Shown here piece by piece: positions 2,956-29,450 of a stretch of DNA of 29,450 bases. The position numbers and the translations under genes are program-made. The stretch lies in UHGV virus genome UHGV-0338605; one strand, written 5' to 3'. The notes under the pieces are model-generated. The model saw nothing but the letters and a program-made list of their open reading frames with translations. It ran no database searches and was not told where the DNA came from. The DNA is from a virus. Every line of letters starts with the position of its first letter. The stretch's first letter is position 1.

Positions 2956-2978
2956 AAAAGCCCGCGCATCGGCGGGCT
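2955..2978 (-). terminator. rho-independent terminator for the minus-strand tRNA/Gp49 unit
   Basis: Stem GCCCGC(2960-2965)/GCGGGC(2972-2977) with a 6-nt loop; on the minus strand it is followed by TTTTT (plus AAAAA 2955-2959). Lies just 3' of the minus-strand CDS ending at 2999. Confidence 0.6.
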
Positions 2979-2982
2979 GATT

Positions 2983-2994
2983 GTGACATGTCAC
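2983..2994. repeat. 12-bp perfect palindrome GTGACATGTCAC, copy 2 (14-bp TGTGACATGTCACA at 2982-2995)
   Basis: Read directly, between the converging 3' ends of the terminase large gene and the minus-strand gene. Confidence 0.8.
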
Positions 2995-2998
2995 ATCA

Positions 2999-3406
2999 TT
3001 ATTTTTCGCTCATTATCTGCTTCAGAAGATAACCTTCCAGCATCCAGATTTTATTTACCGCATTTTCGCGGGAAATCTTTCGCCCGATCTCTGGGTCGAA
3101 GTTCTCAGGGCTGGCGCATGCACTCTCGCCGGTGACAGTGAATCCATTTCGCAGCACTAGAACGCAAAACGTAAGTACTGCAGCCTGCTCAGGAATGTTC
3201 AACTCCTCAACCTTTTCATCATCTGACTTTGTATCAGTCAAATATTGATGGCGACCTGCTATACCATCAGCAGCCGTGAAGTAATGCTCACTTACTATAA
3301 CGTCGGCAATCCGTTGTGGCGTAATGCGCGGCGCGTTTAAGCCTTTAGCCTGAATTTCCTGCTCGATTGCCATGCAGGATGGTGCTGGAGATGCGGTTGA
3401 TACCAT
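2999..3406 (-). CDS. small phage protein, possibly Gp49/Gp66-like family (about 135 aa)
   Basis: ORF on the minus strand; ATG at 3406 preceded by AGGTGA (the track's GTG at 3415 is less likely). The C-terminal ASPENFDPEIGRKISRENAVNKIW resembles, from memory, Phage_gp49_66-type proteins; unverified. Confidence 0.55.
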   Translation of the reverse strand: MVSTASPAPSCMAIEQEIQAKGLNAPRITPQRIADVIVSEHYFTAADGIAGRHQYLTDTKSDDEKVEELNIPEQAAVLTFCVLVLRNGFTVTGESACASPENFDPEIGRKISRENAVNKIWMLEGYLLKQIMSEK

Positions 3407-3613
3407 GATTTTCACCTTAAAAAAATGCCCACCGAAGTGGGAGAACTGGAAGCAAGGGTGCCTTCCATGGCTTTACGGGTTTACAGCGCAACGTCATCGC
3501 AATGGCGTTCTGCTGTAAAAGTGACGGTGGTCAGCATCAAGGGAAACTGCCACCGCCAATAGCTACACAGCATCGTTCTTATGGGCGCTTCATCACGGTC
3601 CTAAGGCGTGATC

Positions 3614-3690
3614 TGGTGCGGCATGCAGGATTCGAACCTGCGACCAACCGCTTAGAAGGCGGTTGCTCTATCCAACTGAGCTAATGCCAC
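3614..3690 (-). tRNA. tRNA-Arg (anticodon UCU), argU-like
   Basis: Minus-strand 77-nt sequence GTGGCATTAGCTCAGTTGGATAGAGCAACCGCCTTCTAAGCGGTTGGTCGCAGGTTCGAATCCTGCATGCCGCACCA folds as a cloverleaf: 7-bp acceptor stem with one G-U pair, GTTCGAATC T-loop, anticodon loop CTTCTAA, encoded CCA. Confidence 0.88.
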
Positions 3691-4143
3691 AACGCTGAGA
3701 GCACTCCCATCTTTGCTAATGGGCTTCAAGAGCGGCAGGCCTACCACTTGGAATGCTCTCATCGTTGCATCCTCGTCTCTTCCGAGGTGTCACACCGTAT
3801 CGCCACGATGGTGAGTCGTCATGTCCGTGCTTACCTGACACTGGCTTGCACATTCCGGCTACCCGGTTGGGGAAGTAGCATCAAGGGAACCCATCCGGAC
3901 CGCTGCGGCACATGTGCCATATGCCGTACTGCTACACATCTGAAAGCGCACTCCACCGTTTGGATTTAACGACCAGGCTCAAAGGTCATTCACTGAAGCG
4001 CGCTTTTAGTTGTGTGCGGAGATGATGCTCCGCTTATCCACCGCCTTTACTTTTAAGCCCAATTTATTGCTGCGGTACTCCGGGCTACTGCACAAGCGGT
4101 TACATAACCACCTCCGCAATTCGTCAATTCAACACGCGAACTA

Positions 4144-4160
4144 ATTACCTAAAAGGTAAT
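4144..4160. promoter_or_regulatory. 17-bp palindrome ATTACC-TAAAA-GGTAAT, candidate operator, copy 2 of 6
   Basis: Read directly; about 90 bp upstream of the ATG at 4250 in an AT-rich promoter-like stretch. Confidence 0.6.
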
Positions 4161-13817: not shown

Positions 13818-16564
13818 TGCCTGTTGTTCCTACTACATCCGGACGCCAGGTGCAAAGTCGTGGTGTGCAAACCGGTGGTTTTCAGACCTTCGATGTTCCT
13901 CAAGCAGGTCAGGTGCTGGCGAATGTCGCAGATCAGTATGCGGTGGCATATGGTGAAGCCAGGCAGAAAGCGAATGTTGCTATGGCCCAGGAGGCGTTAC
14001 TGCAATTTAACCAATTTGCAGATGACCAGATTAACAACCCTGAAAATGGGCTGATTTCTAAACAGGGTAAAAACGCTCTTGGTCAGAGTGACGCTGTTAT
14101 GAAAAATATGCAGGAAAGGGCTCAGGCATTATTAGGCTCAATTCCTGAAAGTGAGGAAAGGAATAAATTATCCTTTCAACTCCAGCAGTCTATGCAGTCT
14201 TATTACAATCAGGCACGTCGATATGAAGTTGGGCAGTTTCAGCAATTCCAAGATCAAACGTATTTGTCAGGAAATGCATTGGCTGTCACTCAGTCTGCGG
14301 GGCTATATAGCGATAACCAAGCATTTGTCGATTTAGCCAAGCAGCGATTTGAATCTATTGATCAATACGCTGATGCGCATGGGCTTCCTGATGAGTGGCG
14401 TGTTCAGCAGAAAACTCAGCTCAAGGAACAAATGGGGCAGCAAGCATGGATAGGAAATATCGCTCAAAAATACAACGAGTTTCTTCAGGTTAATGGAGAG
14501 CCAGGGGATCTTGACGGTGTGAGTCGTGCAATGTCACATGGTAATTCATTGGATGCTCGTGGGTTACGTAATAATAACCCTGGTAATATTGAAGCGAGCA
14601 AATCTAACCCGTGGGAAGGTCAGATCGGTAGCGATGGACGTTTTGCAACGTTTGCTACCCCTGAGCATGGAATCCGCGCGTTGGGTAAAAATATGTTGTC
14701 TTACCAGCGTCAAGGCTATGACACCGTTAGCGAGATTGTTAATCGCTATGCTCCGGCTAGTGATGGTAATAATACTGATGCTTATATTAGGGCATTGTGT
14801 GGTGAGCTTGGTGTTGGGGAGAATGATCAGCTTGATATCTCTAACCCAAAGACACTAGCTGCTTTATGTGCTGGGATTATTAAACACGAAAATGGCAGTA
14901 TGCCTTATAGCACCGAACAGCTTGAAACTGGTATCTCGGCAGCCCTTGGTCTAACTAACCTTGATTCACCTAAGCGTTATACGGGCAATGCGGCATTTGA
15001 TGCTATGAGCCCTCAAATGCAAATACAGGCATTGAGGCAGGCTAATGAGCTGAGAAATCAGTACCGCCAGCAGTATGCGGACCAGCTTAGCACCGTAGTT
15101 AAAGATGCATATTCAGCCCTTGATGAAGGATTGAAACCTGAGCAGTTACCTTCTGAGGACGATTTTATCCGGGCCAATGGTCCGCGCATTGGCGCTATGA
15201 AGTGGAAGGATATGCAGGCGCAGATACAATATGGAGGTGTCATTGGTGCCGCTAAAGACCTCACTCCAGAAGGACGACAAGACATTCTTGAACGTTTACG
15301 TCCACAGGATCCAAACGCTCCTGGATTTGCAGCTAACCAGCAACGCTGGGAGAAAATGCAGGCCAAATTTAAAGAGATGGATAGGGAGTGGGAGATTCAG
15401 CAGGGAAGAAACAGGTTCGTGTCTTCAATGCAAAATAACTTCCCGCTGGACCCGAACGACAAAAACAATCAGGCAGCGGTAGACCGTTATTTCGCGCAGG
15501 ATATCGCGCCTTCGTTTTCCATATCTGATCCGCAGAGCATCAATACACTGGTCACCGTCACAACTAAAAGCGGCATGATACCAACTCAGGTTAAAACAAT
15601 GCTTAACAGTGGAGCAACATCAAGAGATCCTGCGCTGGTTGTCCCGATGGCAAAATTCTACGGTCAGTTATTCGATAATAATCCGGCGGCAGCGGCAACA
15701 CTTGATAAAAGTACGATGGCATTTTACGGCAAGGTTTACGATTATTCCCGCGCTGGCGTGCCGGAGGATAAGGCTGTTGATATGGCTTACAGCCAGGTGT
15801 TCCAACAGGATGACCGAATGAAACAGATGCTTTCCACTGCCATGCGAGACAAAAAATATGTCGCGGCGAGGGCAACTGCTGCACAAAATAACGCCAGCAG
15901 TCTGACTTCCTTTGGTTCGTGGTCTCCGGATATTACCGATCCAGGAAAATCAAATGCGGCCTATCAGCGAGATTACCAGACAATTTACGATGCTAACTTT
16001 GTACAGACAGGTGGCGATGCAGAACAGGCTGAGAAAATGACCAATGCCATGATCAGAACCACTTGGGGAGTTTCTACGGTTAATGGCAAAGCAGAGGTTA
16101 TGAAGTATGCACCTGAGGCATTGTACGGAGTAAATAATGGTGCTGGTAACTGGATACAGGGGCAGTGGGAGCAGGAAAAACGCGAGCTTAAATCAAAATC
16201 CTTTGGCGGTCCTCGCAGTGATACGGACTTAATACTTGTTTCTGATGGCCTTACGGCAAGGGATAGGAGTTATGCTGTTATGGTTTTACAGCCTGACGCA
16301 AACGGAGCGATAGAACCGAGAAATTATATTGGAGAAAATGGTCTCCCTGTTCGTTTCAAGCCGGATCAGCTGACATCTCCAATGTACAGGCAAACCATTC
16401 AGTTCCAGCAACAGCGTGTTGATGAGGCTAGAGTGCGGAGAGAAGGCAATCCGCTGCCGCAGTTCAGCAATAAAGATGGATATACTCCTCCAGATCTGAC
16501 CAAACCATTCGGTTATGGTTCAGCCAATTACCTTCCGAGCAATATATACGCAGGGGGCAAATAA
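13817..16564 (+). CDS. internal virion / ejection protein, gp15-like by position (915 aa)
   Basis: TAGGAGG RBS, ATG overlaps the upstream stop; AT-rich central segment containing GLRNNNPGNIEASKSNPWEGQIGSDGRFATFATPEHGIRALGKNM, a motif I associate weakly with virion-borne cell-wall-interacting domains. Confidence 0.5.
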   Translation: MPVVPTTSGRQVQSRGVQTGGFQTFDVPQAGQVLANVADQYAVAYGEARQKANVAMAQEALLQFNQFADDQINNPENGLISKQGKNALGQSDAVMKNMQERAQALLGSIPESEERNKLSFQLQQSMQSYYNQARRYEVGQFQQFQDQTYLSGNALAVTQSAGLYSDNQAFVDLAKQRFESIDQYADAHGLPDEWRVQQKTQLKEQMGQQAWIGNIAQKYNEFLQVNGEPGDLDGVSRAMSHGNSLDARGLRNNNPGNIEASKSNPWEGQIGSDGRFATFATPEHGIRALGKNMLSYQRQGYDTVSEIVNRYAPASDGNNTDAYIRALCGELGVGENDQLDISNPKTLAALCAGIIKHENGSMPYSTEQLETGISAALGLTNLDSPKRYTGNAAFDAMSPQMQIQALRQANELRNQYRQQYADQLSTVVKDAYSALDEGLKPEQLPSEDDFIRANGPRIGAMKWKDMQAQIQYGGVIGAAKDLTPEGRQDILERLRPQDPNAPGFAANQQRWEKMQAKFKEMDREWEIQQGRNRFVSSMQNNFPLDPNDKNNQAAVDRYFAQDIAPSFSISDPQSINTLVTVTTKSGMIPTQVKTMLNSGATSRDPALVVPMAKFYGQLFDNNPAAAATLDKSTMAFYGKVYDYSRAGVPEDKAVDMAYSQVFQQDDRMKQMLSTAMRDKKYVAARATAAQNNASSLTSFGSWSPDITDPGKSNAAYQRDYQTIYDANFVQTGGDAEQAEKMTNAMIRTTWGVSTVNGKAEVMKYAPEALYGVNNGAGNWIQGQWEQEKRELKSKSFGGPRSDTDLILVSDGLTARDRSYAVMVLQPDANGAIEPRNYIGENGLPVRFKPDQLTSPMYRQTIQFQQQRVDEARVRREGNPLPQFSNKDGYTPPDLTKPFGYGSANYLPSNIYAGGK

Positions 16565-19500
16565 TGCCGATATATGAACAGGATCCTAAAAAGTTGCTTG
16601 GCGAGGATATTCAGCAAATAGCAGCACCTGATGACAGTAATTTCTATATGGAAACACCTTCTTTGCTTTCTGCTGTGAACCCATTTACCAGTGATCAACG
16701 CGTTCAAAGGTCTAGACAAGCAGCATTTCGTATAGATAACACGCTGGGTAGCTTTATTGCCAGTGCTCCTTTCAGTCAGTTTGACAGGGTTGAAGGATAT
16801 AACCCATTTGATAACGATGCAGCAGATATTAAAGGCTATGAAGATTTTGCAGATTCGTTTATCAACTCCGGTTCGCCTGAAGAAACAATGGCAATTAAAC
16901 ATCGAATCGATCAGCAGAGAGCTGACATGGAATACAATTCAGGCTTGGGATTTGCTGGTACAGTCTCTTCTGTAGCAATGAGATTAGCAGATCCATTCAA
17001 TGCGATTTCTATGTTTATTCCGTTCGGCGCTGTCGTTCGTGGCGGTCGTATTGCAGAAACAGCCGGGCGTTTTGCCCTGGCGAATGCTGCTGGCAGTGTT
17101 GCTTCAGAGGCCGCATTACAGGCCACTCAGGAAGCTCGCTCACCGATGGAGAGCGTATCGAACGTTGTTGTTGATGCTCTCGTTGGTGGGATCCTTGGTG
17201 CTGGTGCACAGCTACTTGCTGGACCTGGCGCGCGCGAGGCAGTGGTTAACTCAGTAGGTAATCATTTGCGAGGTATGGATTCTCCTCAAAGCATTGGTGC
17301 AGCTCAGGTTTTCAATACCACACTCGATCAGGAACAGCTCGCTGGACTTGGACTTGCTAACAAAACGTTGAGTGTCACTCCTGCTGGCCGCTTGGCGCAA
17401 TCACCATCTCTTGTCTCCCGTCAGATTAACCAGCAGCTTGCCGAAAATAACTATTTCTTCGCCAAAAATGATGAGGGGTTGGCTACGTTTACGGCAGTCG
17501 AGACTAAGATTAAGCAATACGACGCCATGCTTTATAAGCAGATGGAAGCCACTCGTGATGCTTACCAGCAGTACAGCAAATCTGTTAGCGCCCGCGGCGT
17601 GAAGAGGATGAACTTTATTGATTTCAATGAAGCTGTTGGCATGGCTATGCGCCGTGGTGATCAGAGTGATATTCCTGAGGTTTCACAAGCAGCCGCCAGA
17701 ATCCGCCCCATTTTCGAGACCACAAAAGCCCGTATGCAGGAACTGGGGATCCTTCCTAAGGATATCGATGTCGTGACGGCGAAAAGTTATCTTCCCCGCA
17801 TTTATAAGTTCGATAAGATACTTTCCGACCGCACTGAATTCAGAGGGCGAATTGCCAACTGGATACAAGGGATTAGTGCCAAAGGTGCTGACAAAGCAGG
17901 TCAGCGAATTGAAAGGATAAATTCATTGCTAAAAACTGCAGAGGAATCGGCACCGCGCGCTGATGCTCTCGCTAGTGAAATCGCTGAAGCGGAGAAATGG
18001 TCTGGTAAAAAAATTCTACTCATGGAAGAACTGGATAAACGAAATAAGCTTATATCTCAGGAGACTGACACACAGGCGCGTCTTACAAGAATAGAAAAAG
18101 AGTTGGCCGAGACTTCATCAGAAAAACTTCAGGCAAGAATGATGAAAGAAAGCTCTGACCTTAAAACACGCCTTGATGATATAGCGCAGGCAAAGAGTGA
18201 GCTTCCTGTCTATCAGCGCCATATGGAGTTGTTGGATAATCCACGGAAATATCGTTCTGAGCTTCGCCGACTGCAAAAACGGGCAAATTCAACCACAAGG
18301 CTGAATGCAAGCCGCGAACGAGCACTGAAGCAGATGGAGCCTCTATCCCGAGAGGAAGCAGAGGACGCTGCTGACGAGATCGTGAATAAAATAATAGGCG
18401 CACCTTCCGGGCTTGTACCAGCCGATATTATCCCAGAGAGACTCGTTGGTCGGGCTGGTTTCACTAAAAGCAGAACGCTGCTTATTCCTGATGAGCGTAT
18501 AGAAGATTTTCTTGAATCAGATGTTAACTACATCATGGAAAGTTATCTCCGGCAGGTGGCACCAGAAATTGAGCTGACTGCGCAGTTTGGCCGTAAAGAT
18601 ATGGGGGAGCAAATCCGTCAGGTTAGTGAGGAATATACCCGGCTAATAAAAGAGGCTAAAACACCTAAACGACGTGCAGTTCTTGAGAAGCAACGGGAGG
18701 CTGATATTAGGGATATTACGGCTATGCGTGATCGACTGCTTGGTACTTACGGTGCACCTCAAGATCCACGCAGTTTCTTTGTTCGTGCCGGGCGAGTTGC
18801 TAGGAATATTAACTTCCTCCGTTTGCTTGGTGGAATGACCGTCTCCGCTGCAACTGATCTGATGCGACCGATGATGCAGCATGGCCTGAGAAAATCTCTC
18901 GGACCAATGGTAAGCATGCTTAAAAATATGGACTCAGTGAAGATTGCAACCAGGGATTTGCGAGAAATGGCCGTTGGGCTTGATTATGTCCTGTCTACGC
19001 GTACAAAGGCTATAGCGGATCTTACTGACCCATATAGCCGGAGAAGCGCCGCTGAGCGAGGCCTGAACTGGATGACGCAGAAATTCGGTAACTGGACGCT
19101 GATGAATCAGTGGAACAGCGCACTTAAATCATGGTCTGGGATGATAGTGCAGTCGAGGATACTTGACGCGGCTCGCCAAGTTTCTGCTGGTGGCACGCTC
19201 TCCAAAAGTGAAATGCGGAAGATGGCACAGGTCGGCATCAATGAAGATGTTCTGCGCCGAATCGGGGAGCAATTCGGGAAGCACGGAGAGGATATGGACG
19301 GGCTGTTAACCGGGCATAGTCATCTGTGGGATGACCGTTTCGCTAGAGAGATTTTCCAGTCTGCAGTGCTGAAAGATGTAGACTCAGTGATTGTAACGCC
19401 TGGCGTAGGTGATACACCGCTGTTTTTTAGTAAAGAAGGCTGGAAGATGATCACGCAGTTCAAAACGTTTATCTTCGCACAGCATAACAGGGTGCTGGTA

Positions 19501-19953
19501 TCTGGTATCCAGCAGGGCGATGCTGCATTCTATCTTGGTGCGCTTGGCACGATTGCGCTTGGCTCAATGGTCTATATGATGAAACAGAAGTTAAGCGGTC
19601 GCGATATTGACTACAGCTGGAATAACCTTGTGAAAGAGGGGATCGACCGGGGCGGAATGCTTGGCTGGCTCTCTGAGCCGCTGAATACCGTTGAGAACAT
19701 AAGCGGTGGTAGGTTTGGTCTTGGCGCGATGTTTGGTGCGCCTCCGGTATCAAGGTTTCAGAGTCGTAATGCTATTGGTGCTTTACTTGGTCCTACCTTT
19801 GATCTTGGCGGTGATGCCGCGACGGTTGCGAATGGTGTACTTAACGGAGAATTTGACAGCCAGCAAACCCACGCGGTCCGTAAAATGCTACCTTTTCAGA
19901 ACCTGTGGGCGATATCACCATTACTAAATAAAGTTGAAGAGCAGATGAAATAG
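16564..19953 (+). CDS. internal core / ejection protein, gp16-like by position (1129 aa)
   Basis: Largest ORF of the module; start overlaps the upstream stop (ATAATG); long predicted coiled-coil-like central region; followed by TAG then the ATG of the next gene. Confidence 0.5.
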   Translation: MPIYEQDPKKLLGEDIQQIAAPDDSNFYMETPSLLSAVNPFTSDQRVQRSRQAAFRIDNTLGSFIASAPFSQFDRVEGYNPFDNDAADIKGYEDFADSFINSGSPEETMAIKHRIDQQRADMEYNSGLGFAGTVSSVAMRLADPFNAISMFIPFGAVVRGGRIAETAGRFALANAAGSVASEAALQATQEARSPMESVSNVVVDALVGGILGAGAQLLAGPGAREAVVNSVGNHLRGMDSPQSIGAAQVFNTTLDQEQLAGLGLANKTLSVTPAGRLAQSPSLVSRQINQQLAENNYFFAKNDEGLATFTAVETKIKQYDAMLYKQMEATRDAYQQYSKSVSARGVKRMNFIDFNEAVGMAMRRGDQSDIPEVSQAAARIRPIFETTKARMQELGILPKDIDVVTAKSYLPRIYKFDKILSDRTEFRGRIANWIQGISAKGADKAGQRIERINSLLKTAEESAPRADALASEIAEAEKWSGKKILLMEELDKRNKLISQETDTQARLTRIEKELAETSSEKLQARMMKESSDLKTRLDDIAQAKSELPVYQRHMELLDNPRKYRSELRRLQKRANSTTRLNASRERALKQMEPLSREEAEDAADEIVNKIIGAPSGLVPADIIPERLVGRAGFTKSRTLLIPDERIEDFLESDVNYIMESYLRQVAPEIELTAQFGRKDMGEQIRQVSEEYTRLIKEAKTPKRRAVLEKQREADIRDITAMRDRLLGTYGAPQDPRSFFVRAGRVARNINFLRLLGGMTVSAATDLMRPMMQHGLRKSLGPMVSMLKNMDSVKIATRDLREMAVGLDYVLSTRTKAIADLTDPYSRRSAAERGLNWMTQKFGNWTLMNQWNSALKSWSGMIVQSRILDAARQVSAGGTLSKSEMRKMAQVGINEDVLRRIGEQFGKHGEDMDGLLTGHSHLWDDRFAREIFQSAVLKDVDSVIVTPGVGDTPLFFSKEGWKMITQFKTFIFAQHNRVLVSGIQQGDAAFYLGALGTIALGSMVYMMKQKLSGRDIDYSWNNLVKEGIDRGGMLGWLSEPLNTVENISGGRFGLGAMFGAPPVSRFQSRNAIGALLGPTFDLGGDAATVANGVLNGEFDSQQTHAVRKMLPFQNLWAISPLLNKVEEQMK

Positions 19954-19954
19954 G

Positions 19955-20806
19955 ATGAAAAAAATAAATTTGTTTTTTGGCATAGTGCTTTCAATAGTCT
20001 CTGTAAATCCTACAGCTGCCAGTTCATTGCAATGCAATAAGGATAACTTTGATGCATGCAAAACGTGTGAACAATTATCAAAGGCTATCGACTTAAAAGA
20101 ACCTAATCGTGGCGATTACTATAGAGGGGCTTTATGGAATGGGCTTTACGCCTCTTATGTAATTAATTGCCCTGTGGTTGCTGAGAAGTTACTGAGCCAT
20201 GGTGCTATACCATCATATGGCGGATATATGGGGTCTATGGGGGCGGTTCTGACAGGAAAATGGCCTCATAACAATGAATCAATAAATCTTTCATGGGCAG
20301 ATTTGCTTATAAAACATGGATTTGATGTTAATAGGCATACGGGGAATTATAAATCAGCTACTGAAGTATGGGCTATAGATAAAAAACAGATTGAATATAA
20401 GTCAGTTTTTGACAAGTTAATTCAATCCAGCGAAGTAAAACCACTCGATCCTTCAAGAAATTTAGAATGGTGTGCGTCTGAAGGGTATCGCTCAGTTGTC
20501 GTTTATTCCCTTAACTCATGTATAGAAAATGCTATAAAACGTTTGGATGATGGTGTTTCTTCAGCGTCTGATATTTCATCAGCAGCCGTAAATTCCTGTA
20601 CTAGCGATGTAGAAAATTTCAATAAGCATTTGGCATGCAAAGCAGCTGTTAAAGAAAACTCTGATAAAGAGAGAAGCGACGTTTACCAGTTATTAACCAG
20701 TGATAGTCAAATGAATAAAAATGTTATTGATATGCTGAAGGAAAGAAATATTGAAACGGTTCTTGAATTTAGAGCTGAAAATCGATCAGCGAAAACTGCA
20801 CAGTGA
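19955..20806 (+). CDS. secreted or periplasmic protein of unknown function (283 aa), AT-rich accessory gene
   Basis: N-terminal signal peptide MKKINLFFGIVLSIVSVNPTAAS; strongly AT-rich compared with the flanking structural genes; ATG one nucleotide after the gp16-like stop; weak ankyrin-like LLxxGA/DVN patterns (LLSHGA, LLIKHGFDVN). Confidence 0.6.
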   Translation: MKKINLFFGIVLSIVSVNPTAASSLQCNKDNFDACKTCEQLSKAIDLKEPNRGDYYRGALWNGLYASYVINCPVVAEKLLSHGAIPSYGGYMGSMGAVLTGKWPHNNESINLSWADLLIKHGFDVNRHTGNYKSATEVWAIDKKQIEYKSVFDKLIQSSEVKPLDPSRNLEWCASEGYRSVVVYSLNSCIENAIKRLDDGVSSASDISSAAVNSCTSDVENFNKHLACKAAVKENSDKERSDVYQLLTSDSQMNKNVIDMLKERNIETVLEFRAENRSAKTAQ

Positions 20807-20812
20807 TCAAAC

Positions 20813-20837
20813 AGGCCGCTTTCGCGGCCTTGTTTTT
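20813..20837 (+). terminator. rho-independent terminator
   Basis: Stem AGGCCGC/GCGGCCT (20813-20830) with TTTC loop followed by TGTTTTT; ends the plus-strand late operon. Confidence 0.7.
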
Positions 20838-20997
20838 AACGAATGCCACCGCCGCCCGGGCGGGAATCCGCAGAACGCCCACCGCAGCGGGAGCCGTCAG
20901 CGGCAGTATCGCTGTCGTGCTGACAACGACCGGCAAAGGCCTGAGTTGAAGCTACCAGAGACAACAAAACGAACAGTGCAGCAAATGCTTTTTTCAT
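20836..20997 (-). CDS. small secreted peptide candidate (53 aa)
   Basis: Minus-strand ATG at 20997 gives MKKAFAALFVLLSLVASTQAFA followed by a short Cys-containing mature part. Coding status uncertain. Confidence 0.35.
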   Translation of the reverse strand: MKKAFAALFVLLSLVASTQAFAGRCQHDSDTAADGSRCGGRSADSRPGGGGIR

Positions 20998-21068
20998 TGT
21001 GACATTTCCATCTATAAGCCACCTCAATGTGGCGTCAATGAGTGTAGCACTGACTTTTGTTTCGTCCA

Positions 21069-21091
21069 CAAAAAAGCCCGCGCCGCGGGCT
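21069..21091 (-). terminator. rho-independent terminator for the 211-aa minus-strand gene
   Basis: Stem GCCCGC/GCGGGC (21076-21090); on the minus strand it is followed by TTTTTT (plus A6 at 21070-21075); sits just 3' of the CDS ending at 21099. Confidence 0.7.
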
Positions 21092-21098
21092 TAAAGAA

Positions 21099-21734
21099 CT
21101 ATTTTATTGGCAGCTTATGCTTTGAAATTATGGCCAATCTGTTTTGGAAGTTTTCCGCATCACCCCATAACCAGGTTTCACCTTTCTCAAGCTCTTCCTC
21201 GTTATTCATCTCTATCAGCTCGCATGTCATCATGTCGTAACCATAGAGGTGGAGGCCAAGTTCCAGTGCGTCATACATGCGAGCCTGCCAGAACGACATG
21301 CCTTCATGAGTCTGGTTGCGATCAGACACGATGATATCGTACCGTTCCAAGAGGTAGTTCATGAAGATGATGCCGGCGAAATCATGAAGCACAGCACGAT
21401 GCTTAGGCTTCTGGGTTCTCCATACCAATATCTGCGTGACAGGACGGCAGTTAAGATAGCTGTCAGGCTGGATAATGACACGATTGTAATACACTACCTC
21501 TTCGGTGAGGTCATTTATCAATGACAGTTCAAAGTGCGCCTGTGGAATCTCGCCTTTCTTACGATCGTCTACACGGACAACGCGGTATCCAGGAGCCAGA
21601 GAAACGCCTTTGACATCAGATGTGACATCGTTGCCGTTCACTAACTCTGAATACAGGGCGCGGTTGTCTGGAGTTTCGTTCAGATGAGCGAAAACCTCAG
21701 TTACCTTTGCTGGATTCAGCAGTTGTTGTGGCAT
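21099..21734 (-). CDS. hypothetical protein (211 aa), accessory gene of unknown function
   Basis: ATG at 21734 preceded by GAGGTG; own upstream palindrome site and downstream terminator; no family recognised. Confidence 0.65.
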   Translation of the reverse strand: MPQQLLNPAKVTEVFAHLNETPDNRALYSELVNGNDVTSDVKGVSLAPGYRVVRVDDRKKGEIPQAHFELSLINDLTEEVVYYNRVIIQPDSYLNCRPVTQILVWRTQKPKHRAVLHDFAGIIFMNYLLERYDIIVSDRNQTHEGMSFWQARMYDALELGLHLYGYDMMTCELIEMNNEEELEKGETWLWGDAENFQNRLAIISKHKLPIK

Positions 21735-21773
21735 ACATCACCTCATAATATATAGATGCTTCTTTAAGCGGGA

Positions 21774-21790
21774 TTTACCATTAGGGTAAA
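21774..21790. promoter_or_regulatory. 17-bp palindrome TTTACC-ATTAG-GGTAAA, candidate operator, copy 3 of 6
   Basis: Read directly; 40 bp upstream of the minus-strand ATG at 21734. Confidence 0.6.
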
Positions 21791-21927
21791 TGAACTATCC
21801 GAATGTTAAACGCCTTCGTACTCGTCAAATTTTCTCATGTGGGCTCCTCCTGTATCGGTGCCTAATCGCTATGGATCACCCGTAAGGTAATAGTACGCTA
21901 TTCACCCACAGTCTGCAATCTGTACAG

Positions 21928-21954
21928 AATTATTTAAAGGCACATCCCTGTGCC
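21928..21954 (-). terminator. possible terminator after the Bro-N gene
   Basis: Stem GGCACA/TGTGCC (21939-21954) with a 4-nt loop; on the minus strand it is followed by the T-rich TTTAAATAATTC; 9 bp 3' of the CDS ending at 21963. Confidence 0.4.
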
Positions 21955-21962
21955 GCCGCTAG

Positions 21963-22658
21963 TCAGAAGAATCCTGCTTTGTCGTTGATGTACTCCGCGT
22001 GAGTCTGGATATCACGCAGGCATTTGCTCACACCAACGATGTAGCAGAACATGGTGGTCAGTTCCGCCGCCGCGCCCGATACGTCATGCCCGTCTTCCTG
22101 TAACTGGTTCAGCAGATTCATCAGCAGTGAGTTCTCCGTCAGGCCGAGAACACCAGACGGCGAATGAATCAGGCTACGGTAGCCGGGCTTCAGTGGGGCG
22201 CTGTAGGTTTTGTTCTCTATCTTCATTGCCTGCATCACTGCTGATGCTGTGGCGTTTGCAACCTGGTCGGCAACCATCTTTATGCGTTCTTCCTGCGGGA
22301 GCGAGTTTTTAATGTAACTTCCGGTGCGGCGGATCTGAGGAAGAACCTCACCTGTAACCCATTTACGAAAGCGGTAGGGGATAGTGCCTGGTGTCACTGC
22401 GTCGCGGCAGCGGAGGATCAGTGTGTAGAGGCCTGACTCGGAGATGATGATCGATTCTTGCTCACCGCCAGGGGTGTCGGTTGAAGCGACGCCCTTCTCA
22501 TCATCATCAAGTTTTCGAACAGCATCTCGATGGTTTGCTATGCCTATAGCCCGACAAACATCTGAAGCGATAAACCATGGCTCACCATTAATGACGATTA
22601 CTCGTATATCGGCTTGGGATTCGAAAGAAAAAATGGACGTGCTTTTTGTAGCTGTCAT
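21963..22658 (-). CDS. Bro-N domain protein (antirepressor-like) with distinct C-terminal domain (231 aa)
   Basis: N-terminal FESQADIRVIVINGEPWFIASDVCRAIGIANHRDAVRKL matches the Bro-N/antirepressor N-terminal pattern; ATG at 22658 with AAGG upstream; C-terminal about 70 aa is paralogous to the small ORF at 23806-24066. Confidence 0.75.
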   Translation of the reverse strand: MTATKSTSIFSFESQADIRVIVINGEPWFIASDVCRAIGIANHRDAVRKLDDDEKGVASTDTPGGEQESIIISESGLYTLILRCRDAVTPGTIPYRFRKWVTGEVLPQIRRTGSYIKNSLPQEERIKMVADQVANATASAVMQAMKIENKTYSAPLKPGYRSLIHSPSGVLGLTENSLLMNLLNQLQEDGHDVSGAAAELTTMFCYIVGVSKCLRDIQTHAEYINDKAGFF

Positions 22659-22926
22659 AGTGGTTACCTTTTAGTCTGGTCAATCACCACTACCGACGCC
22701 AATCGGTTGGTGGTGAACTGTGCAGGGTTGGCGTAACCGGCTAAAAGGACCCGGCGCACCTTTCGGTGCCCCCACACAGCCCACCATAATACGAATGTGG
22801 CCGTGCTATACGCATAAAAAAACCGCTTGCGCGGTGAATGCGCCTTTTAGTAATCCGGGACGCCAATCCCGGCACTGGATTTTGCCAGTGCCCGATTACT
22901 ATGGCACAAGAGGAGTGCGATGTAAA

Positions 22927-22943
22927 TTTACCGAAAAGGTAAT
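22927..22943. promoter_or_regulatory. 17-bp palindrome TTTACC-GAAAA-GGTAAT, candidate operator, copy 4 of 6
   Basis: Read directly, in the divergent intergenic region 22659-23055. Confidence 0.6.
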
Positions 22944-23019
22944 GATAAACGCGGAGAAATATTAAAATCAACCGTATTTGGTTGATTGCGTTTAACGCTT
23001 GATCACCTGAAAGCAAGAT

Positions 23020-23036
23020 ATTACCTTTAAGGTAAT
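23020..23036. promoter_or_regulatory. 17-bp palindrome ATTACC-TTTAA-GGTAAT, candidate operator, copy 5 of 6
   Basis: Read directly; 20 bp upstream of the ATG at 23056. Confidence 0.6.
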
Positions 23037-23055
23037 GTTATTGTGAGGAAAAGCA

Positions 23056-23784
23056 ATGGAAGTTTTCTGGATAGTTGTTGGTGTTGTTACGGTGATTATT
23101 TACGTTATCAACCAGAACAGGACTAAGGTCTCTGATCGCACAGTCGTTAATCATCGCAAAACGATAAAGACCGAAGATGGAGAAATAACGATTAATCGTA
23201 CACAGGTGATAGACCACACCTCCACTCAGTTTCAAAAAACTGGAGGTAATGCGCCGGATATTTCAGTACATCCTGCTTATGATATATCGGTAATCCAGAC
23301 ATATTATAAACAACAGGAGTCAGCAAAAGAGAGGGCGCTGATTCAGCCAAAGCCATTTACAGCAGAGCTTCCACCTGGAGTGTCAACGCGTCCGGCATAT
23401 CATGACAGATTCCCAGGTGATGACATATCGTCTCAGTTACCTAAAAAAGCTCCTCAGGTAGTATCTGAGCCAGCAAGAATACCTTCTGTATCGCCATCAC
23501 AAGAAGAATCAGCTAACAGAGTTTCAAGTGGTAGTAAGCAGTGTTTGCGATGCAGAATAAACCTTCCATATGAAAAATTCAGGAAATCGTCAAAAAATCC
23601 AGATGGATTGACTAAGTGGTGTGCAAGGTGTCTCGATGGCCCAAAGAATACACGCCATATGAAGTGGTGCCCAATTTGTAATGTCCGCAGAAAACGCACC
23701 AGCTTTTACTCTAATAATCAAAATGCGGACGGCTTAATGGCATGGTGCAAAACGTGCTGGGACGAGCACAAAGCGAAACGATAG
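23056..23784 (+). CDS. membrane-anchored protein with tandem Cys4 zinc-ribbon-like repeats (242 aa)
   Basis: GAGGAA RBS; N-terminal hydrophobic helix FWIVVGVVTVIIYVI; C-terminus carries two repeats of C-x2-C-x(17-20)-DGL-x3-WC-x2-C; AT-rich; followed by a strong terminator. Confidence 0.65.
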   Translation: MEVFWIVVGVVTVIIYVINQNRTKVSDRTVVNHRKTIKTEDGEITINRTQVIDHTSTQFQKTGGNAPDISVHPAYDISVIQTYYKQQESAKERALIQPKPFTAELPPGVSTRPAYHDRFPGDDISSQLPKKAPQVVSEPARIPSVSPSQEESANRVSSGSKQCLRCRINLPYEKFRKSSKNPDGLTKWCARCLDGPKNTRHMKWCPICNVRRKRTSFYSNNQNADGLMAWCKTCWDEHKAKR

Positions 23785-23808
23785 GCCGCTCTTGCGGCCT
23801 TTTTTTTA
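23784..23808 (+). terminator. rho-independent terminator
   Basis: Stem GGCCGC/GCGGCC (23784-23799) with TCTT loop followed by T8 (23800-23807). Confidence 0.75.
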
Positions 23809-24066
23809 TGTGGTTTGTTTTCGTAATTGTTCGGCACAATAGTCGAGATGTGTTTGCAGATCCTTCATGGATAGCTGTGAGCTGGTGACATAGTTCACCA
23901 GTGCAGTAAGTTCGGCCAGCGGCCCGTCGACGTTGAACCCGTCTTTATCAAGTTCCCGCAATAAAGTCATAAGGTGCGAGTTCTCCACCAGGGATATAAC
24001 GCCTCCCGGCGTGTGTACTCTTTCATAAAATCCATCTTCCAGTGGGTGGTGATACCGCTGTTGCAT
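23806..24066 (-). CDS. small protein (86 aa) paralogous to the C-terminal domain of the Bro-N protein
   Basis: ATG at 24066 preceded by GGAG (the track ORF begins at a TTG at 24084). About 40-45% identity by eye to residues about 160-225 of the 231-aa Bro-N protein (shared ENS-LM-LL, DG-V-G, AELT, QTH-Y). Confidence 0.6.
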   Translation of the reverse strand: MQQRYHHPLEDGFYERVHTPGGVISLVENSHLMTLLRELDKDGFNVDGPLAELTALVNYVTSSQLSMKDLQTHLDYCAEQLRKQTT

Positions 24067-24141
24067 TAACCATTCTCCATACAAACACTGTATATATATA
24101 CATATATCAGATGAACCACTGTTTCACCAGTATGATTTTTA

Positions 24142-24158
24142 ATTACCTGTGAGGTAAT
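24142..24158. promoter_or_regulatory. 17-bp palindrome ATTACC-TGTGA-GGTAAT, candidate operator, copy 6 of 6
   Basis: Read directly; between the divergent starts of the 86-aa gene (24066, minus) and the tail spike gene (24262, plus). Confidence 0.6.
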
Positions 24159-24261
24159 AACTTTGTTGATTACATCTCGTGCGATTCATATATGGTTCGT
24201 TGGGTAATAGAATAACCAGTAGTGCGGTGCGCCGGGTGCTGCGACTTTCTGGAGTTTAAAC

Positions 24262-26973
24262 ATGACGGTCTCAACCGAAGTTGACCACAATGACTACACG
24301 GGTAACGGGGTCACGACATCATTCCCCTATACCTTCCGAATTTTTCATAAGTCTGATCTGGTGGTGCAGGTTGTTGACCTGAGCGAAAACATCACTGAAT
24401 TAACACTGGACACTGACTACACGGTGACAGGTGCTGGCGGATATACTGGCGGGAATGTTGTTTTATCGTCGCCTCTTGCCAATGGTTATCAGATTTCGAT
24501 ATCCAGAGAGTTACCGGTTACCCAGGAGACTGATCTCAGAAATCAGGGTAAGTTTTTCGCAGAAGTGCATGAGGATGCTTTTGATAAGTTGACCATGCTG
24601 ATACAGCAGGCAATTAGCTGGCTGCGCCTTTCTTTACGTAAGCCGTCTTTTATTGCAAATTATTATGATGCCCTGGGTAACTACATACGAAATCTTCGTG
24701 ACCCGTCACGACCACAGGATGCAGCTACAAAAAATTACGTTGACGGGGTTGCTGAAGGTAACATTTCTTATGCAGATTCTCTATTTAAAAGAACCTTAAG
24801 AGTTCCTGAGGATTATGTTGACCAGATACCATCAAATGCTGATAGATCAAATAAAATACTTGCTTTTGATTCTGGAGGTAAACCGATTGCTGTTTTACCT
24901 GAATCTGGTTCTGCTTCAGATGTTTTAATTGAGCTGGCAAATAACGGTGATAAAAAAATTGGTAGCTCATATGGTGGCACAGTTTATAGCGACTACCAAC
25001 AATCAATTTTTGTCAAAAAAGGAGATTTTTATTCCGGTTTAAGCATATCGGGAAAAGATGATGCCTACCTTTTTTCTGATGGGCTATGGTATGTATGGAC
25101 TGGCGCATTACCGCACACGATCTTGTCGGGTGAAACTCCTGATGTAGAAACAACTAAATGGGCTTGTGTAGGCCTGCTTAATGGGCATGAAATTTGTTCT
25201 GCTCTTAACTATAGCGATTCATGGGGCATCCATGATGATTCACCATTACTTCGCAAAGCCATCATTAGTTTAATAAGAACTGGATATGCAAGATTTTGCA
25301 TTAACGCTGGCGTTACTATTAACCTTTTTACTGATTGCGAAATTCCGTTCTATCTGGATGGGAGGGCTGTGTCTTTCCGTTTTCATGGAGAAACAGCAAT
25401 TGGTTCTTTAGGAAGAGTGTCAGAACTAGTAGTAGCTCTAGGTATTAGAGGTCTTGTATTCGAGGCTATTCAAGTAGAGATTGACCATTTCACTATGCGT
25501 CAGTGGGTTGGTAATGCTGGGCAGTCTATTGTCAGTTATACATCTGATACAGTTACGCTATCTTTTGACCCATGGCCTGACGGACGCACCCCAGTGATAT
25601 GGCCTTGGGGAACTACTGCTGGTGATGGCACTGTTTACACAAGCTTTTTAGAATTTACAACTGACAGTGGTGGTTATTACGCATCTGGCGTAACTCGCAA
25701 CTTAGATGGAACCGTAACACTAACCAATGTCCATCCTATTGGGCCAACTAATACAATCGCTTCCGCAACGATTGTTAACTTTTTCCAGAGTCATGCTAAT
25801 AACTATCCAGAAGGAAGTTTCGCAGATACGGCAGCAGTAATCACCCTGGGGGTATCAGAAAACCCATTTATTCATAACTTATGGGTGCTTGCTGTCTATC
25901 GAGGCTTTGCTCACGGTCTTGGCTCTGGAGCAGGTCCGGGAGTATTGATGGGAAATATCGGCGTATGGTCTGATATTGTCGTAGACAACGCTTTATACTT
26001 TATAGCTAATACTGATGTGAATCCATCATCTGGGCAAGGCATCAACAATGGGATGTTCAATAACATTCAGTTATCAAACGTCCGTCGTGGAATAAGAGCA
26101 CGTAGAGCCTACAATCTTGCATTCACAAACCTTCAGCATATTGCTAGCGGTAATGTTTCATTTGATGCTGTTACTATACTGGCAAATGAAATAGAAGGTG
26201 TTACTTTAAATGGATCTCAGTTTGGTTGGACATCTATCGACTGGGTTATAGATACATGGGTTCCTAAACTACTCAAGTGTACCCGATTACGTCGCTCCTC
26301 TATTACTGGATGCGTGTTCGGTCGACATGATGTAACCATCACAAGAGGTGCCGTAATTGACGTTAAGGACGGCACAATACTAGGTTTAACACTAACTGGT
26401 AATTCTATGGTTACAATCGACGAAAACTCAGATTCAAGTAACTATGGATGGATTGAGTGTAATGAGCTTAAATCATCAGTTATTTCTGATAACTCCCCTA
26501 GTTCAGGTAGTGAGCTTGGTGGAAGCATTAATCTCTCGCTGAGAACTGCTTCTAATGACTTAACAAAATTTGATAACACATATTTTGGTCAACCAGTCAG
26601 AACAAACGCAGAAGCTGGTGTGTTTGATAATGAACTAGCATCCGGTGGAAATGTTTTTGACAGCACAACTGAATACAGAGACGCAGGTAAAATTTTAATC
26701 TTTGTTGATGTAAACAATGCTGCTGTATGGCCTGATAATTCAAGGAATATCATACCATTCGGCGGAGGATTAACAGGAGGTAAAACACTTGGATTGCCTA
26801 CCCCAGCAGTACTCCTGTCATTGAAAAGAAGAAGTGTTCTGGTTGATTTGTCATCTGTGGTTTTTGGTAGCCAGACAATTGGAGTGTATAACGGGGCAAC
26901 TTTGGTATCAACAATATCAACTCCTGGTGTTTATGAGTTTCTCCTCGTAGGGGCAAAATACATAAAATTATAA
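24262..26973 (+). CDS. tail spike / tail fibre receptor-binding protein (903 aa)
   Basis: GGAG RBS; N-terminal MTVSTEVDHNDYTGNGVTTSFPYTFRIF...DLVV is the conserved virion-attachment type of N-terminus seen on many tail fibres and spikes; the remainder is AT-rich and Ser/Thr/Gly/Asn-rich. Confidence 0.75.
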   Translation: MTVSTEVDHNDYTGNGVTTSFPYTFRIFHKSDLVVQVVDLSENITELTLDTDYTVTGAGGYTGGNVVLSSPLANGYQISISRELPVTQETDLRNQGKFFAEVHEDAFDKLTMLIQQAISWLRLSLRKPSFIANYYDALGNYIRNLRDPSRPQDAATKNYVDGVAEGNISYADSLFKRTLRVPEDYVDQIPSNADRSNKILAFDSGGKPIAVLPESGSASDVLIELANNGDKKIGSSYGGTVYSDYQQSIFVKKGDFYSGLSISGKDDAYLFSDGLWYVWTGALPHTILSGETPDVETTKWACVGLLNGHEICSALNYSDSWGIHDDSPLLRKAIISLIRTGYARFCINAGVTINLFTDCEIPFYLDGRAVSFRFHGETAIGSLGRVSELVVALGIRGLVFEAIQVEIDHFTMRQWVGNAGQSIVSYTSDTVTLSFDPWPDGRTPVIWPWGTTAGDGTVYTSFLEFTTDSGGYYASGVTRNLDGTVTLTNVHPIGPTNTIASATIVNFFQSHANNYPEGSFADTAAVITLGVSENPFIHNLWVLAVYRGFAHGLGSGAGPGVLMGNIGVWSDIVVDNALYFIANTDVNPSSGQGINNGMFNNIQLSNVRRGIRARRAYNLAFTNLQHIASGNVSFDAVTILANEIEGVTLNGSQFGWTSIDWVIDTWVPKLLKCTRLRRSSITGCVFGRHDVTITRGAVIDVKDGTILGLTLTGNSMVTIDENSDSSNYGWIECNELKSSVISDNSPSSGSELGGSINLSLRTASNDLTKFDNTYFGQPVRTNAEAGVFDNELASGGNVFDSTTEYRDAGKILIFVDVNNAAVWPDNSRNIIPFGGGLTGGKTLGLPTPAVLLSLKRRSVLVDLSSVVFGSQTIGVYNGATLVSTISTPGVYEFLLVGAKYIKL

Positions 26974-28941: not shown

Positions 28942-29450
28942 CTGTCTCTTGATCAGATCTCCTGATCAAGAGACTTCATCACCAGGTAACCCTCAACCAT
29001 ATCCTGAAGTCTGAACCAGCCATCCCACATGACTACCCAACCGGGGCGACCGGTGCGTTTGCTGTCATGCCATCGCCCCAGTTTCGCCAGTTTCAGACAG
29101 GCCCATTTCAGTGTCGGCATCTGTGACGGAAGCGGTTTTCCTTCCAGCTTAACCCACAGCAGTTTCCACTCTGTCGGCGTCAGTATTTTCTCACAGCTGT
29201 CATTTTGTGTTTCTTCACTGATACCGCCCTGCCGCAGGCCCAGCACCCGCACCGCGATAAACGCCTTGATAACCACCATGCGCTCGAGGTTATCCCGGGT
29301 CTGCATTCGCAGCGATTCCACACATGTACCACCACTTTTCCACGCCTTGTGGTATTCCTCTATCAGCCAGCGTCGCTCGTAATGGCTGACGATACGTCGC
29401 GCATCGGCGGCACTCGCCACTTTTTCTGACGTCAGCAGATGCCAGCAGGC
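28942..29450. mobile_element. IS50-like (IS4 family) insertion sequence, one end only; runs off the window
   Basis: 28942-28960 CTGTCTCTTGATCAGATCT matches, from memory, the 19-bp inside end of IS50; the adjacent minus-strand ORF is a Tn5-transposase-like C-terminus. Confidence 0.75.
28953..29450 (-). CDS. IS4-family (Tn5/IS50-like) transposase, C-terminal part; 5' end beyond window
   Basis: Translation contains IEEYHKAWKSGG, DNLERMV, ILTPTEW, DSKRTG, W.GW, matching the conserved C-terminal blocks of Tn5 transposase as recalled; stop TGA lies inside the terminal repeat. Confidence 0.75.
   Translation of the reverse strand, partial: ACWHLLTSEKVASAADARRIVSHYERRWLIEEYHKAWKSGGTCVESLRMQTRDNLERMVVIKAFIAVRVLGLRQGGISEETQNDSCEKILTPTEWKLLWVKLEGKPLPSQMPTLKWACLKLAKLGRWHDSKRTGRPGWVVMWDGWFRLQDMVEGYLVMKSLDQEI

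Follow-up and report, generated by a model that had tools for sequence, protein, structure and literature searches.

The viral genome UHGV-0338605, analysed here as one stretch of 29,450 nucleotides (nt; the window, to whose numbering positions refer unless another record is named), carries in a Uetakevirus-type prophage context a region of six genes, termed A to F, at positions 19955-24261. The region is bounded upstream by the gene of a 1129-amino-acid (aa) internal/ejection protein (16564-19953, annotated DUF919) and downstream by the tail-spike gene (24262-26973) and, together with its flanks, resembles at the DNA level the epsilon15/phiV10-type phages (Uetakevirus), TL-2011b and ZX5, and about 1000 E. 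coli prophages. All six open reading frames (ORFs; Table 1) lie where an initial annotation of the window had placed them and each is covered over almost its full length by a PHROG family, which marks them as real genes. That annotation counted three antisense genes; in fact four of the six (B, C, D and F) lie on the minus strand, antisense to the late genes, and A and E on the late strand. The interruption of the late genes and the patchy composition that it described are both evident, the GC content spanning 0.39 to 0.55 across the region, and so are the region's own terminators and promoter palindromes: a terminator scan returned 13 sites versus 4.3 expected, and the palindrome TTACC-N5-GGTAA occurs six times in the window versus 0.13 expected, four of these sites lying in intergenic parts of the region.

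The product of F, named only 'hypothetical protein' in RefSeq records, is a homologue of epsilon15 gp19 and of the anti-repressor Ant of Salmonella phage SPC32H, and is found in every relative, including epsilon15 and Serratia and Dickeya phages. It aligns over its full length with the crystallised Ant (residues 1-85 versus 2-86 of PDB 5D50_E, 'Anti-repressor protein'; E 8.7e-46), and the repressor of the phiV10 type matches SPC32H Rep (5D50_A, E 4e-42). The SPC32H Rep-Ant anti-repression system (PDB 5D50/5D4Z) is reportedly the work of Kim and Ryu in 2013 and of Kim et al. in 2016, and the former, in J Virol, are said to have placed ant under LexA control in that phage. As described in PMC9638917, the Ant tetramer binds Rep dimers and so breaks up the DNA-binding Rep tetramer. 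Besides the close homology of Ant and the homology of the group's repressor to Rep, the window has in common with SPC32H the genome position of the gene, divergent from the tail-spike gene, and relatives have a LexA box in front of it: a perfect box (CTGT-N8-ACAG) stands 19-22 nt upstream of the F homologue in 11 relatives, epsilon15 and a Dickeya phage included. By its homology F is thus predicted to be the canonical anti-repressor of this phage group. The window differs from SPC32H in that its LexA box carries one mismatch and in that it also holds a second, larger anti-repressor, D, with the same Ant domain.

D appears from its sequence to be a Bro-N domain fused to the Ant domain of F and hence a second anti-repressor. 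The Bro-N antirepressor-like character seen in the initial annotation is borne out for the N-terminus (Pfam PF02498, 2.3e-21, 76.7 bits versus a gathering score of 25.6), and residues 150-226 match the anti-repressor 5D50_E (E 1e-13). The paralogy between its C-terminus and F, likewise noticed before, holds as well (41% identity over 75 aa, E 5e-21), F being 85 aa long where 86 had been given. D and ORF4 of phage vB_EcoP_ZX5 are 100% identical. Overexpression of ORF4 reduced prophage titre and repressor transcripts (PMC9782041), and ZX5 has the same isrK/C4 RNA pair (see below) upstream of the gene; it differs from the window in lacking E and in carrying a DUF2335 pair in place of C, and the compared ZX5 stretch does not extend over the A slot. 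In other relatives the same Ant domain is joined to N-termini of the pRha and P22-Ant types. According to a presence/absence matrix, D and the isrK/C4 RNAs are present in all relatives compared except epsilon15; the D homologue of phiV10 is frameshifted.

What the initial annotation called a hairpin-dense non-coding block, 22659-23055, contains two Rfam RNAs on the minus strand, directly upstream of D (ATG at 22658). The first is an isrK-type small RNA with its own terminator and the second a C4-type antisense RNA, both scoring above their gathering scores (Table 1), whereas the c4-a1b1 target model, at 45.1 bits, falls slightly under its gathering score of 46.7. Mechanical ORFs that run across the block (22720-22965 on the plus and 22741-23016 on the minus strand) were rejected as protein-coding, as the two RNAs account for it. 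Positions 44-51 of C4 (CCUUUUAG) are complementary over 8 nt to CUAAAAGG, which occurs at site a1 inside isrK and at site a2, and positions 58-64 (ACGCCAA) are complementary over 7 nt to UUGGCGU at sites b1 and b2. An isrK/C4 pair lies upstream of the anti-repressor gene in 10 of 10 related loci, including those of Serratia phages whose anti-repressor carries another domain at its N-terminus, and in the loci compared a2 always falls 9-17 nt before the anti-repressor start codon. Moreover, there is three-way co-variation, seen in 6 loci: the first C4 loop exists in five variants and the second in two, and both target copies change to match. In the ZX5 record an 'ash family protein' coding sequence (1779-1892 of the compared stretch) overlaps the C4 RNA (1821-1906) and is likely a mis-annotation.

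Two known regulatory systems are comparable. In the immI operon of P1/P7 (c4-icd-ant1/2) expression of ant is blocked by C4 RNA, as related in PMC8198154 with reference to Citron & Schuster 1990. The window resembles this operon in that the leader of its anti-repressor operon contains a C4-family RNA, that two C4 loops pair with sites on both sides (a1/b1 and a2/b2), the downstream site overlapping a ribosome-binding site, that co-variation of loops and targets sets specificity types, and that an operator of the main repressor also lies in the operon. It differs in that icd is missing and a2 covers the Shine-Dalgarno sequence of the anti-repressor itself, that the Bro-N/Ant anti-repressor is unrelated to P1 Ant, and that the host element is an integrated podovirus. 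In the isrK-orf45-anrP locus of Gifsy-1 in Salmonella it is the isrK RNA ended at its terminator that turns on translation of the read-through mRNA (PMC4825925). There, too, an isrK-family RNA with its own terminator is followed by a C4/STnc1160-like RNA and then by the anti-repressor gene; the read-through architecture is alike, and the short isrK RNA has sequence in common with the downstream target. Different from Gifsy-1, no antQ lies near the locus, and in place of an AUGA-overlapping orf45 the window has just a 35-aa ORF (22680-22787, minus strand), which overlaps the C4 RNA and stops 21 nt upstream of the D start codon, without AUGA coupling.

The palindromes in turn point to Rep as the regulator of several units. 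In the epsilon15 RefSeq record the motif ATTACC-N5-GGTAAT is annotated 'repressor' at seven dispersed sites, one of them between gp19 and the tail-fibre gene, and phiV10 has 14 copies with no more than one mismatch versus 0.52 expected; nearly every intergenic promoter region of that phage contains one, and two stand between its repressor gene and its cro-like gene. The statistics and the epsilon15 annotation led us to reject both a host-factor site and a chance repeat as explanations. Within the region, predicted operators stand upstream of C, at the promoter-like site of the isrK/C4/D unit, upstream of E and between F and the tail-spike gene (Table 1). The two in the divergent isrK/E control region, at 22928 and 23021, are 93 base pairs (bp) apart. 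Six related loci keep exactly this distance, which would allow a tetrameric repressor to form a loop. Since a repressor operator lies in the promoter region of each of C, D, E and F, these units are predicted to be silent in the lysogen, presumably kept off by Rep. Elsewhere in the window an operator pair (813-827 and 831-845) lies within the 5' part of an ORF (773-1477) just upstream of the large-terminase gene; this ORF occupies the place of the small-terminase gene of phiV10 and epsilon15, both of which have an operator at or near the start of that gene (87/105 in phiV10, 12 in epsilon15).

Taken together, we read the region, with a probability of roughly 80%, as the secondary immunity/anti-repression region of a Uetakevirus (epsilon15/phiV10/SPC32H-type) prophage, in which three variable cargo slots are embedded. 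To judge from the positions of the sites and the epsilon15 annotation, Rep would in the lysogen bind ATTACC-N5-GGTAAT operators at the promoters of F, the isrK-C4-D operon, E and C. F (Ant) would in addition be held off by the LexA-type box, which is seen in the sequence, and be released upon DNA damage; Ant would then, as its homology suggests, bind Rep and remove it from the DNA. The D transcript would start with isrK, and most transcripts would end at the isrK terminator. Those that read through would carry the C4 RNA, whose loops would pair with b2 and a2, block the ribosome-binding site of D and leave D untranslated, until the short isrK RNA with its identical a1/b1 sequences titrates C4 and so switches D on. 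For this switch we observe the RNA families, their complementarity and their co-variation, and we infer processing and decoy action from the work on phages P1 and Gifsy-1. The prophage would thereby have two induction inputs, the SOS response via F and an RNA-controlled channel via D. With low certainty, C and E, which bear operators upstream, would most likely be turned on with derepression as host-directed or helper functions, and A would be read with the late operon.

Several observations weigh against this reading or limit it. An icd-like ORF or an AUGA-coupled orf45-like ORF was looked for between C4 and D and not found; the 35-aa ORF may be the counterpart of icd or orf45, and control of D may differ in detail from both P1 and Gifsy-1. 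The mismatch in the CTGT half-site of the LexA box occurs in this prophage only, among the E. coli, epsilon15 and Dickeya relatives checked, and SOS control of F may therefore be weakened here. The repressor gene lies outside the window, so that the Rep type is assumed from the relatives, and the predicted role of the operators is drawn from the epsilon15 database annotation and the position of the sites. Finally, lone chromosomal copies of C, which are devoid of the palindrome (see below), would suit a moron that benefits the host no less than a lytic helper. For the core of the region the initial annotation, which could match none of the products to a system it could name, is nonetheless superseded, as F is a homologue of SPC32H Ant, D is ZX5 ORF4, isrK and C4 account for the non-coding block and the repressor sites are annotated in epsilon15.

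Table 1. Coordinates of genes and candidate regulatory elements in the region between the ejection-protein and tail-spike genes
Feature	Position	Strand	Remarks
Gene A	19955-20806	+	283 aa
Terminator-like hairpin for A	20813-20830	+	Terminator scan; GC-rich; tail-to-tail with B
Gene B	20836-20997	-	53 aa from inner ATG; mechanical ORF listing 20836-21069
Terminator closing C cassette	21074-21092	-	Terminator scan; doubles as left breakpoint of slot 2
Gene C	21099-21734	-	211 aa
Predicted Rep operator upstream of C	21775-21789		Exact palindrome; one-mismatch copy at 21876-21890
Gene D	21963-22658	-	231 aa; Pfam Bro-N
C4 target site a2	22674-22667	-	CUAAAAGG; covers D Shine-Dalgarno sequence
C4 target site b2	22702-22696	-	UUGGCGU; complementary to C4 positions 58-64
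C4-type antisense RNA	22706-22791	-	Rfam RF01695; 77.7 bits versus gathering score 45; E 1e-15
isrK-type small RNA	22816-22891	-	Rfam RF01394; 77.9 bits versus gathering score 50
isrK terminator	22822-22835	-	Terminator scan
Site a1	22850-22843	-	Copy of CUAAAAGG inside isrK; complementary to C4 positions 44-51
Site b1	22866-22860	-	UUGGCGU in isrK hairpin-2 loop; complementary to C4 positions 58-64
Promoter-like site for isrK/C4/D	22898-22942	-	-35 at 22926-22921, -10 at 22903-22898
Predicted Rep operator at isrK promoter-like site	22928-22942		Exact palindrome; abuts -35
Predicted Rep operator upstream of E	23021-23035		Exact palindrome
Gene E	23056-23784	+	242 aa
Terminator for E	23783-23800	+	Terminator scan
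Gene F	23806-24063	-	85 aa
LexA-box-like site	24088-24103		CTGTATATATATACAT; one mismatch to CTGT-N8-ACAG; 25-40 nt upstream of F ATG
Predicted Rep operator between F and tail spike (divergent)	24143-24157		Homologous epsilon15 site annotated 'repressor', 19895-19911

Comparison of the same locus across related prophages, which the initial annotation had proposed, resolves the region into a conserved backbone and three variable slots and confirms the mosaic nature of the locus as well as the presence of uncharacterised cargo. F belongs to the backbone in all phages and B in the E. coli set except phiV10 (presence/absence matrix). Slot 1 holds A or, in relatives, phiV10 p21, a 98-aa ORF, or two genes plus a P22-type arc/ant/sar module (TL-2011b). 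Slot 2, in which homology to the relatives breaks at 21075-21093 and whose breakpoints in the alignment lie at about 21093 and at 21880-21920, holds C or else a YafO-like pair, a DUF2335 pair, DUF4760 or two small ORFs, and slot 3 holds E or two other ORFs or is empty. Just upstream of the first gene, four alternative cassettes of slot 2 have an operator copy of their own; the DUF4760 cassette has no exact copy. The immI region of P22 (mnt-arc-ant-sar) has the same place between ejection genes and tail spike gene 9 and the same secondary immunity role, and an arc/ant/sar module of its type stands in slot 1 of TL-2011b; the regulators and the RNA family of the window, however, are other ones. 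In TL-2011b the arc/ant module spans 2769-3953 of the compared stretch and the sar RNA 2940-3007 (RF00262, 44.8 bits). The C-terminus of its Ant is 84% identical to residues 131-231 of D, so that a single phage holds three anti-repressors with one common domain.

What, then, do the slots carry? Profile searches, as recommended in the initial annotation, and sequence searches gave names to F and D, whereas for A, B, C and E there was no match in PADLOC, NCBIfam or Pfam, and PDB searches with single sequences and profiles of A, C and E returned chance-level matches only. Conserved motifs in the A, C and E families are strong across sequences that are 36-89% identical. C, which had been regarded as an orphan, has 94 close homologues across the Enterobacterales and 936 representatives at 50% identity, nearly all of them stand-alone proteins of about 200 aa. 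Its predicted structure has the GNAT (acyl-CoA N-acyltransferase) fold, a fold class that includes the toxin-antitoxin (TA) toxins AtaT and TacT; AcrVA5 is another GNAT-fold protein. No Pfam or PDB sequence match was obtained for C or for 36 divergent members of the family. A conserved segment, SD-x-x-QT-x-x-G-x-x-FW, falls at the GNAT acetyl-CoA site (strand 134-137, helix from 143), with a spacing that is non-canonical in comparison with the pyrophosphate-binding motif Q/R-x-x-G-x-G/A after strand 4. C thus resembles GNAT-fold TA toxins in its predicted fold and differs from them in lacking sequence-level membership, a canonical acetyl-CoA motif and a partner antitoxin gene. An assignment as a TacT/AtaT-like toxin was rejected, as no partner gene lies beside C-family genes in any of seven contexts and the window upstream of C holds only a 10-aa ORF. 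This ORF (MRKFDEYEGV, 21806-21838, minus strand, between D and C) has a strong AGGAGG ribosome-binding site and could encode a leader peptide or be due to chance.

Elsewhere C behaves as a single-gene moron. Lone insertions of the family are found in a Dickeya podovirus at the same genome position as in the window, in the tail-gene cluster of a Yersinia myovirus and at plain chromosomal sites in Erwinia, Enterobacter and Photorhabdus. An exact ATTACC-N5-GGTAAT lies 40-85 bp upstream of the C-family gene in three unrelated prophages, the E. coli podovirus (21775 in the window), the Dickeya podovirus (4916 of the compared stretch) and the Yersinia myovirus (9929 of the compared stretch), and is absent upstream of the chromosomal copies; the palindrome upstream of C may belong to the mobile unit. 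The cassette occurs in 13 of 5426 E. coli genomes, and C has one weak match among 50,697 phage records. A speculative extension, which we hold to be doubtful, is that the C family, with over 900 clusters and no Pfam model, would comprise acyltransferase effectors of a new, single-gene kind. These would serve host take-over or anti-defence, or be abortive-infection toxins, and the gene would move as a unit among unrelated prophage backbones together with a Rep-type operator of its own. On this view effectors timed by derepression would plug into slot 2, and E and A would have further undescribed functions.

The 53-aa product of B is a pre-peptide with a signal sequence and a mature peptide of about 30 aa with two Cys (PHROG 14503/3117). 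It is annotated WP_000708858.1 in RefSeq relatives and is 100% identical in all E. coli relatives examined; the gene has no Rep operator and, on this reading of its sequence, may be active in the lysogen. The protein encoded by A bears a signal peptide and eight invariant Cys and is narrowly distributed, and its model (predicted local distance difference test score, pLDDT, 77) is all-helical, with putative ankyrin-like repeats followed by a helical bundle; matches to ankyrin/DARPin structures are weak. A is probably made late, since the scan gave no separate promoter-like site for the gene and its start lies just 1 nt beyond the ejection-protein ORF. E matches PHROG 6762 end to end and consists, according to the alignment, of a conserved N-terminal membrane helix, the first 55 residues being conserved, a variable Pro/Ala/Gln-rich linker and two strongly conserved CxxC...WCxxC zinc ribbons. 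Its C-terminal motif is common to EndoVII/HNH/Lar-like families, where it is found at the N-termini of EndoVII/HNH-type phage proteins; a match to PacI is at chance level. The gene is absent from phiV10 and ZX5 and replaced in EC.W1-9, and the TL-2011b copy is annotated just as a misc_feature. In Serratia phages it stands beside anti-repressor genes on the strand opposite to the late genes, and in Buttiauxella within a small, non-phage integrative element.

These properties bear on the view that the additional genes simply encode ordinary virion or assembly proteins and belong to the late operon. A and E do lie on the late strand, A immediately behind the ejection-protein gene. However, A, C and E are absent from the viable phages phiV10 and epsilon15, the signal peptide and conserved Cys of A and the antisense or non-phage settings of E do not suit such a role, and no product of the region matches a structural PHROG category; we regard this view as scarcely credible.

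A more serious contender, on balance still unlikely, is that A, B, C and E are morons which the lysogen expresses to the benefit of the host, by defending it against phages, excluding superinfection or converting its surface, and that this is the main role of the region. The slots are hypervariable among otherwise near-identical prophages, and the alternatives in slot 2 include the YafO-like toxin pair and small membrane proteins. C is a self-contained single gene in the contexts described above and belongs to a fold class with known TA toxins; the secretion of A and B and the membrane anchor of E are traits of many exclusion proteins; and P22 has sieA at the analogous position. Then again, a PADLOC-DB v2 profile search gave no match for the six products or for ten alternative cargo proteins, and C, E and four of the alternative slot-2 cassettes have a Rep operator just upstream, which predicts repression in the lysogen, as it does for D and F. 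A, without a promoter-like site of its own, follows directly on a late gene. Moreover, lysogens of ZX5, which carries B, D, F and a slot-2 cassette and lacks E, were unchanged in growth, stress, biofilm and virulence, phage resistance not being among the phenotypes listed there (PMC9782041). The suggestion of a defence or lysogenic-conversion island made in the initial annotation thus finds no direct support, and we favour a secondary immunity/anti-repression region with embedded cargo.

Could the cargo ORFs be decaying remnants without current function? The prophage seems truncated by an insertion sequence (IS) fragment after the lysis genes, and the frameshifted D homologue of phiV10 and the TL-2011b record of E would fit decay. 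Against this, all six ORFs of the window are intact, the products of A to E are 100% and that of F 87% identical to the copies in one independent genome, and the motifs of the A, C and E families are conserved over the wide range of identities given above; decay therefore appears very improbable. The entire arrangement is present in one of 5426 complete E. coli genomes (97.8% identity), all remaining matches being mosaics. As for the truncation, an ORF with the look of a transposase fragment, recognised by eye only, directly follows the lysis genes (28953-29420, minus strand, close to the end of the window at 29450). In phiV10 and epsilon15 this place is taken by the integrase gene, which suggests that the prophage is truncated there. 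Far upstream, a tRNA-Arg gene (anticodon tct; 3614-3690, minus strand) separates the terminase gene from the portal gene; the roughly 440 bp that follow it (3700-4140) hold no ORF and no Rfam match, and at 4145 a Rep operator stands ahead of the late genes that come next.

The core of the region, in conclusion, is known biology, and its uncharacterised part is the exchangeable cargo A, C and E together with the peptide B. What had been an island of unrecognised genes becomes an annotated regulatory map with two anti-repressors that have one Ant domain in common; a LexA-type box precedes the gene of one, and an isrK/C4 switch that of the other. The co-varying C4 loops and targets supply a natural set of specificity variants with which RNA immunity of the C4 type could be probed beyond phage P1, and the large unnamed GNAT-fold family and two smaller families in defined exchangeable slots provide modest practical leads.

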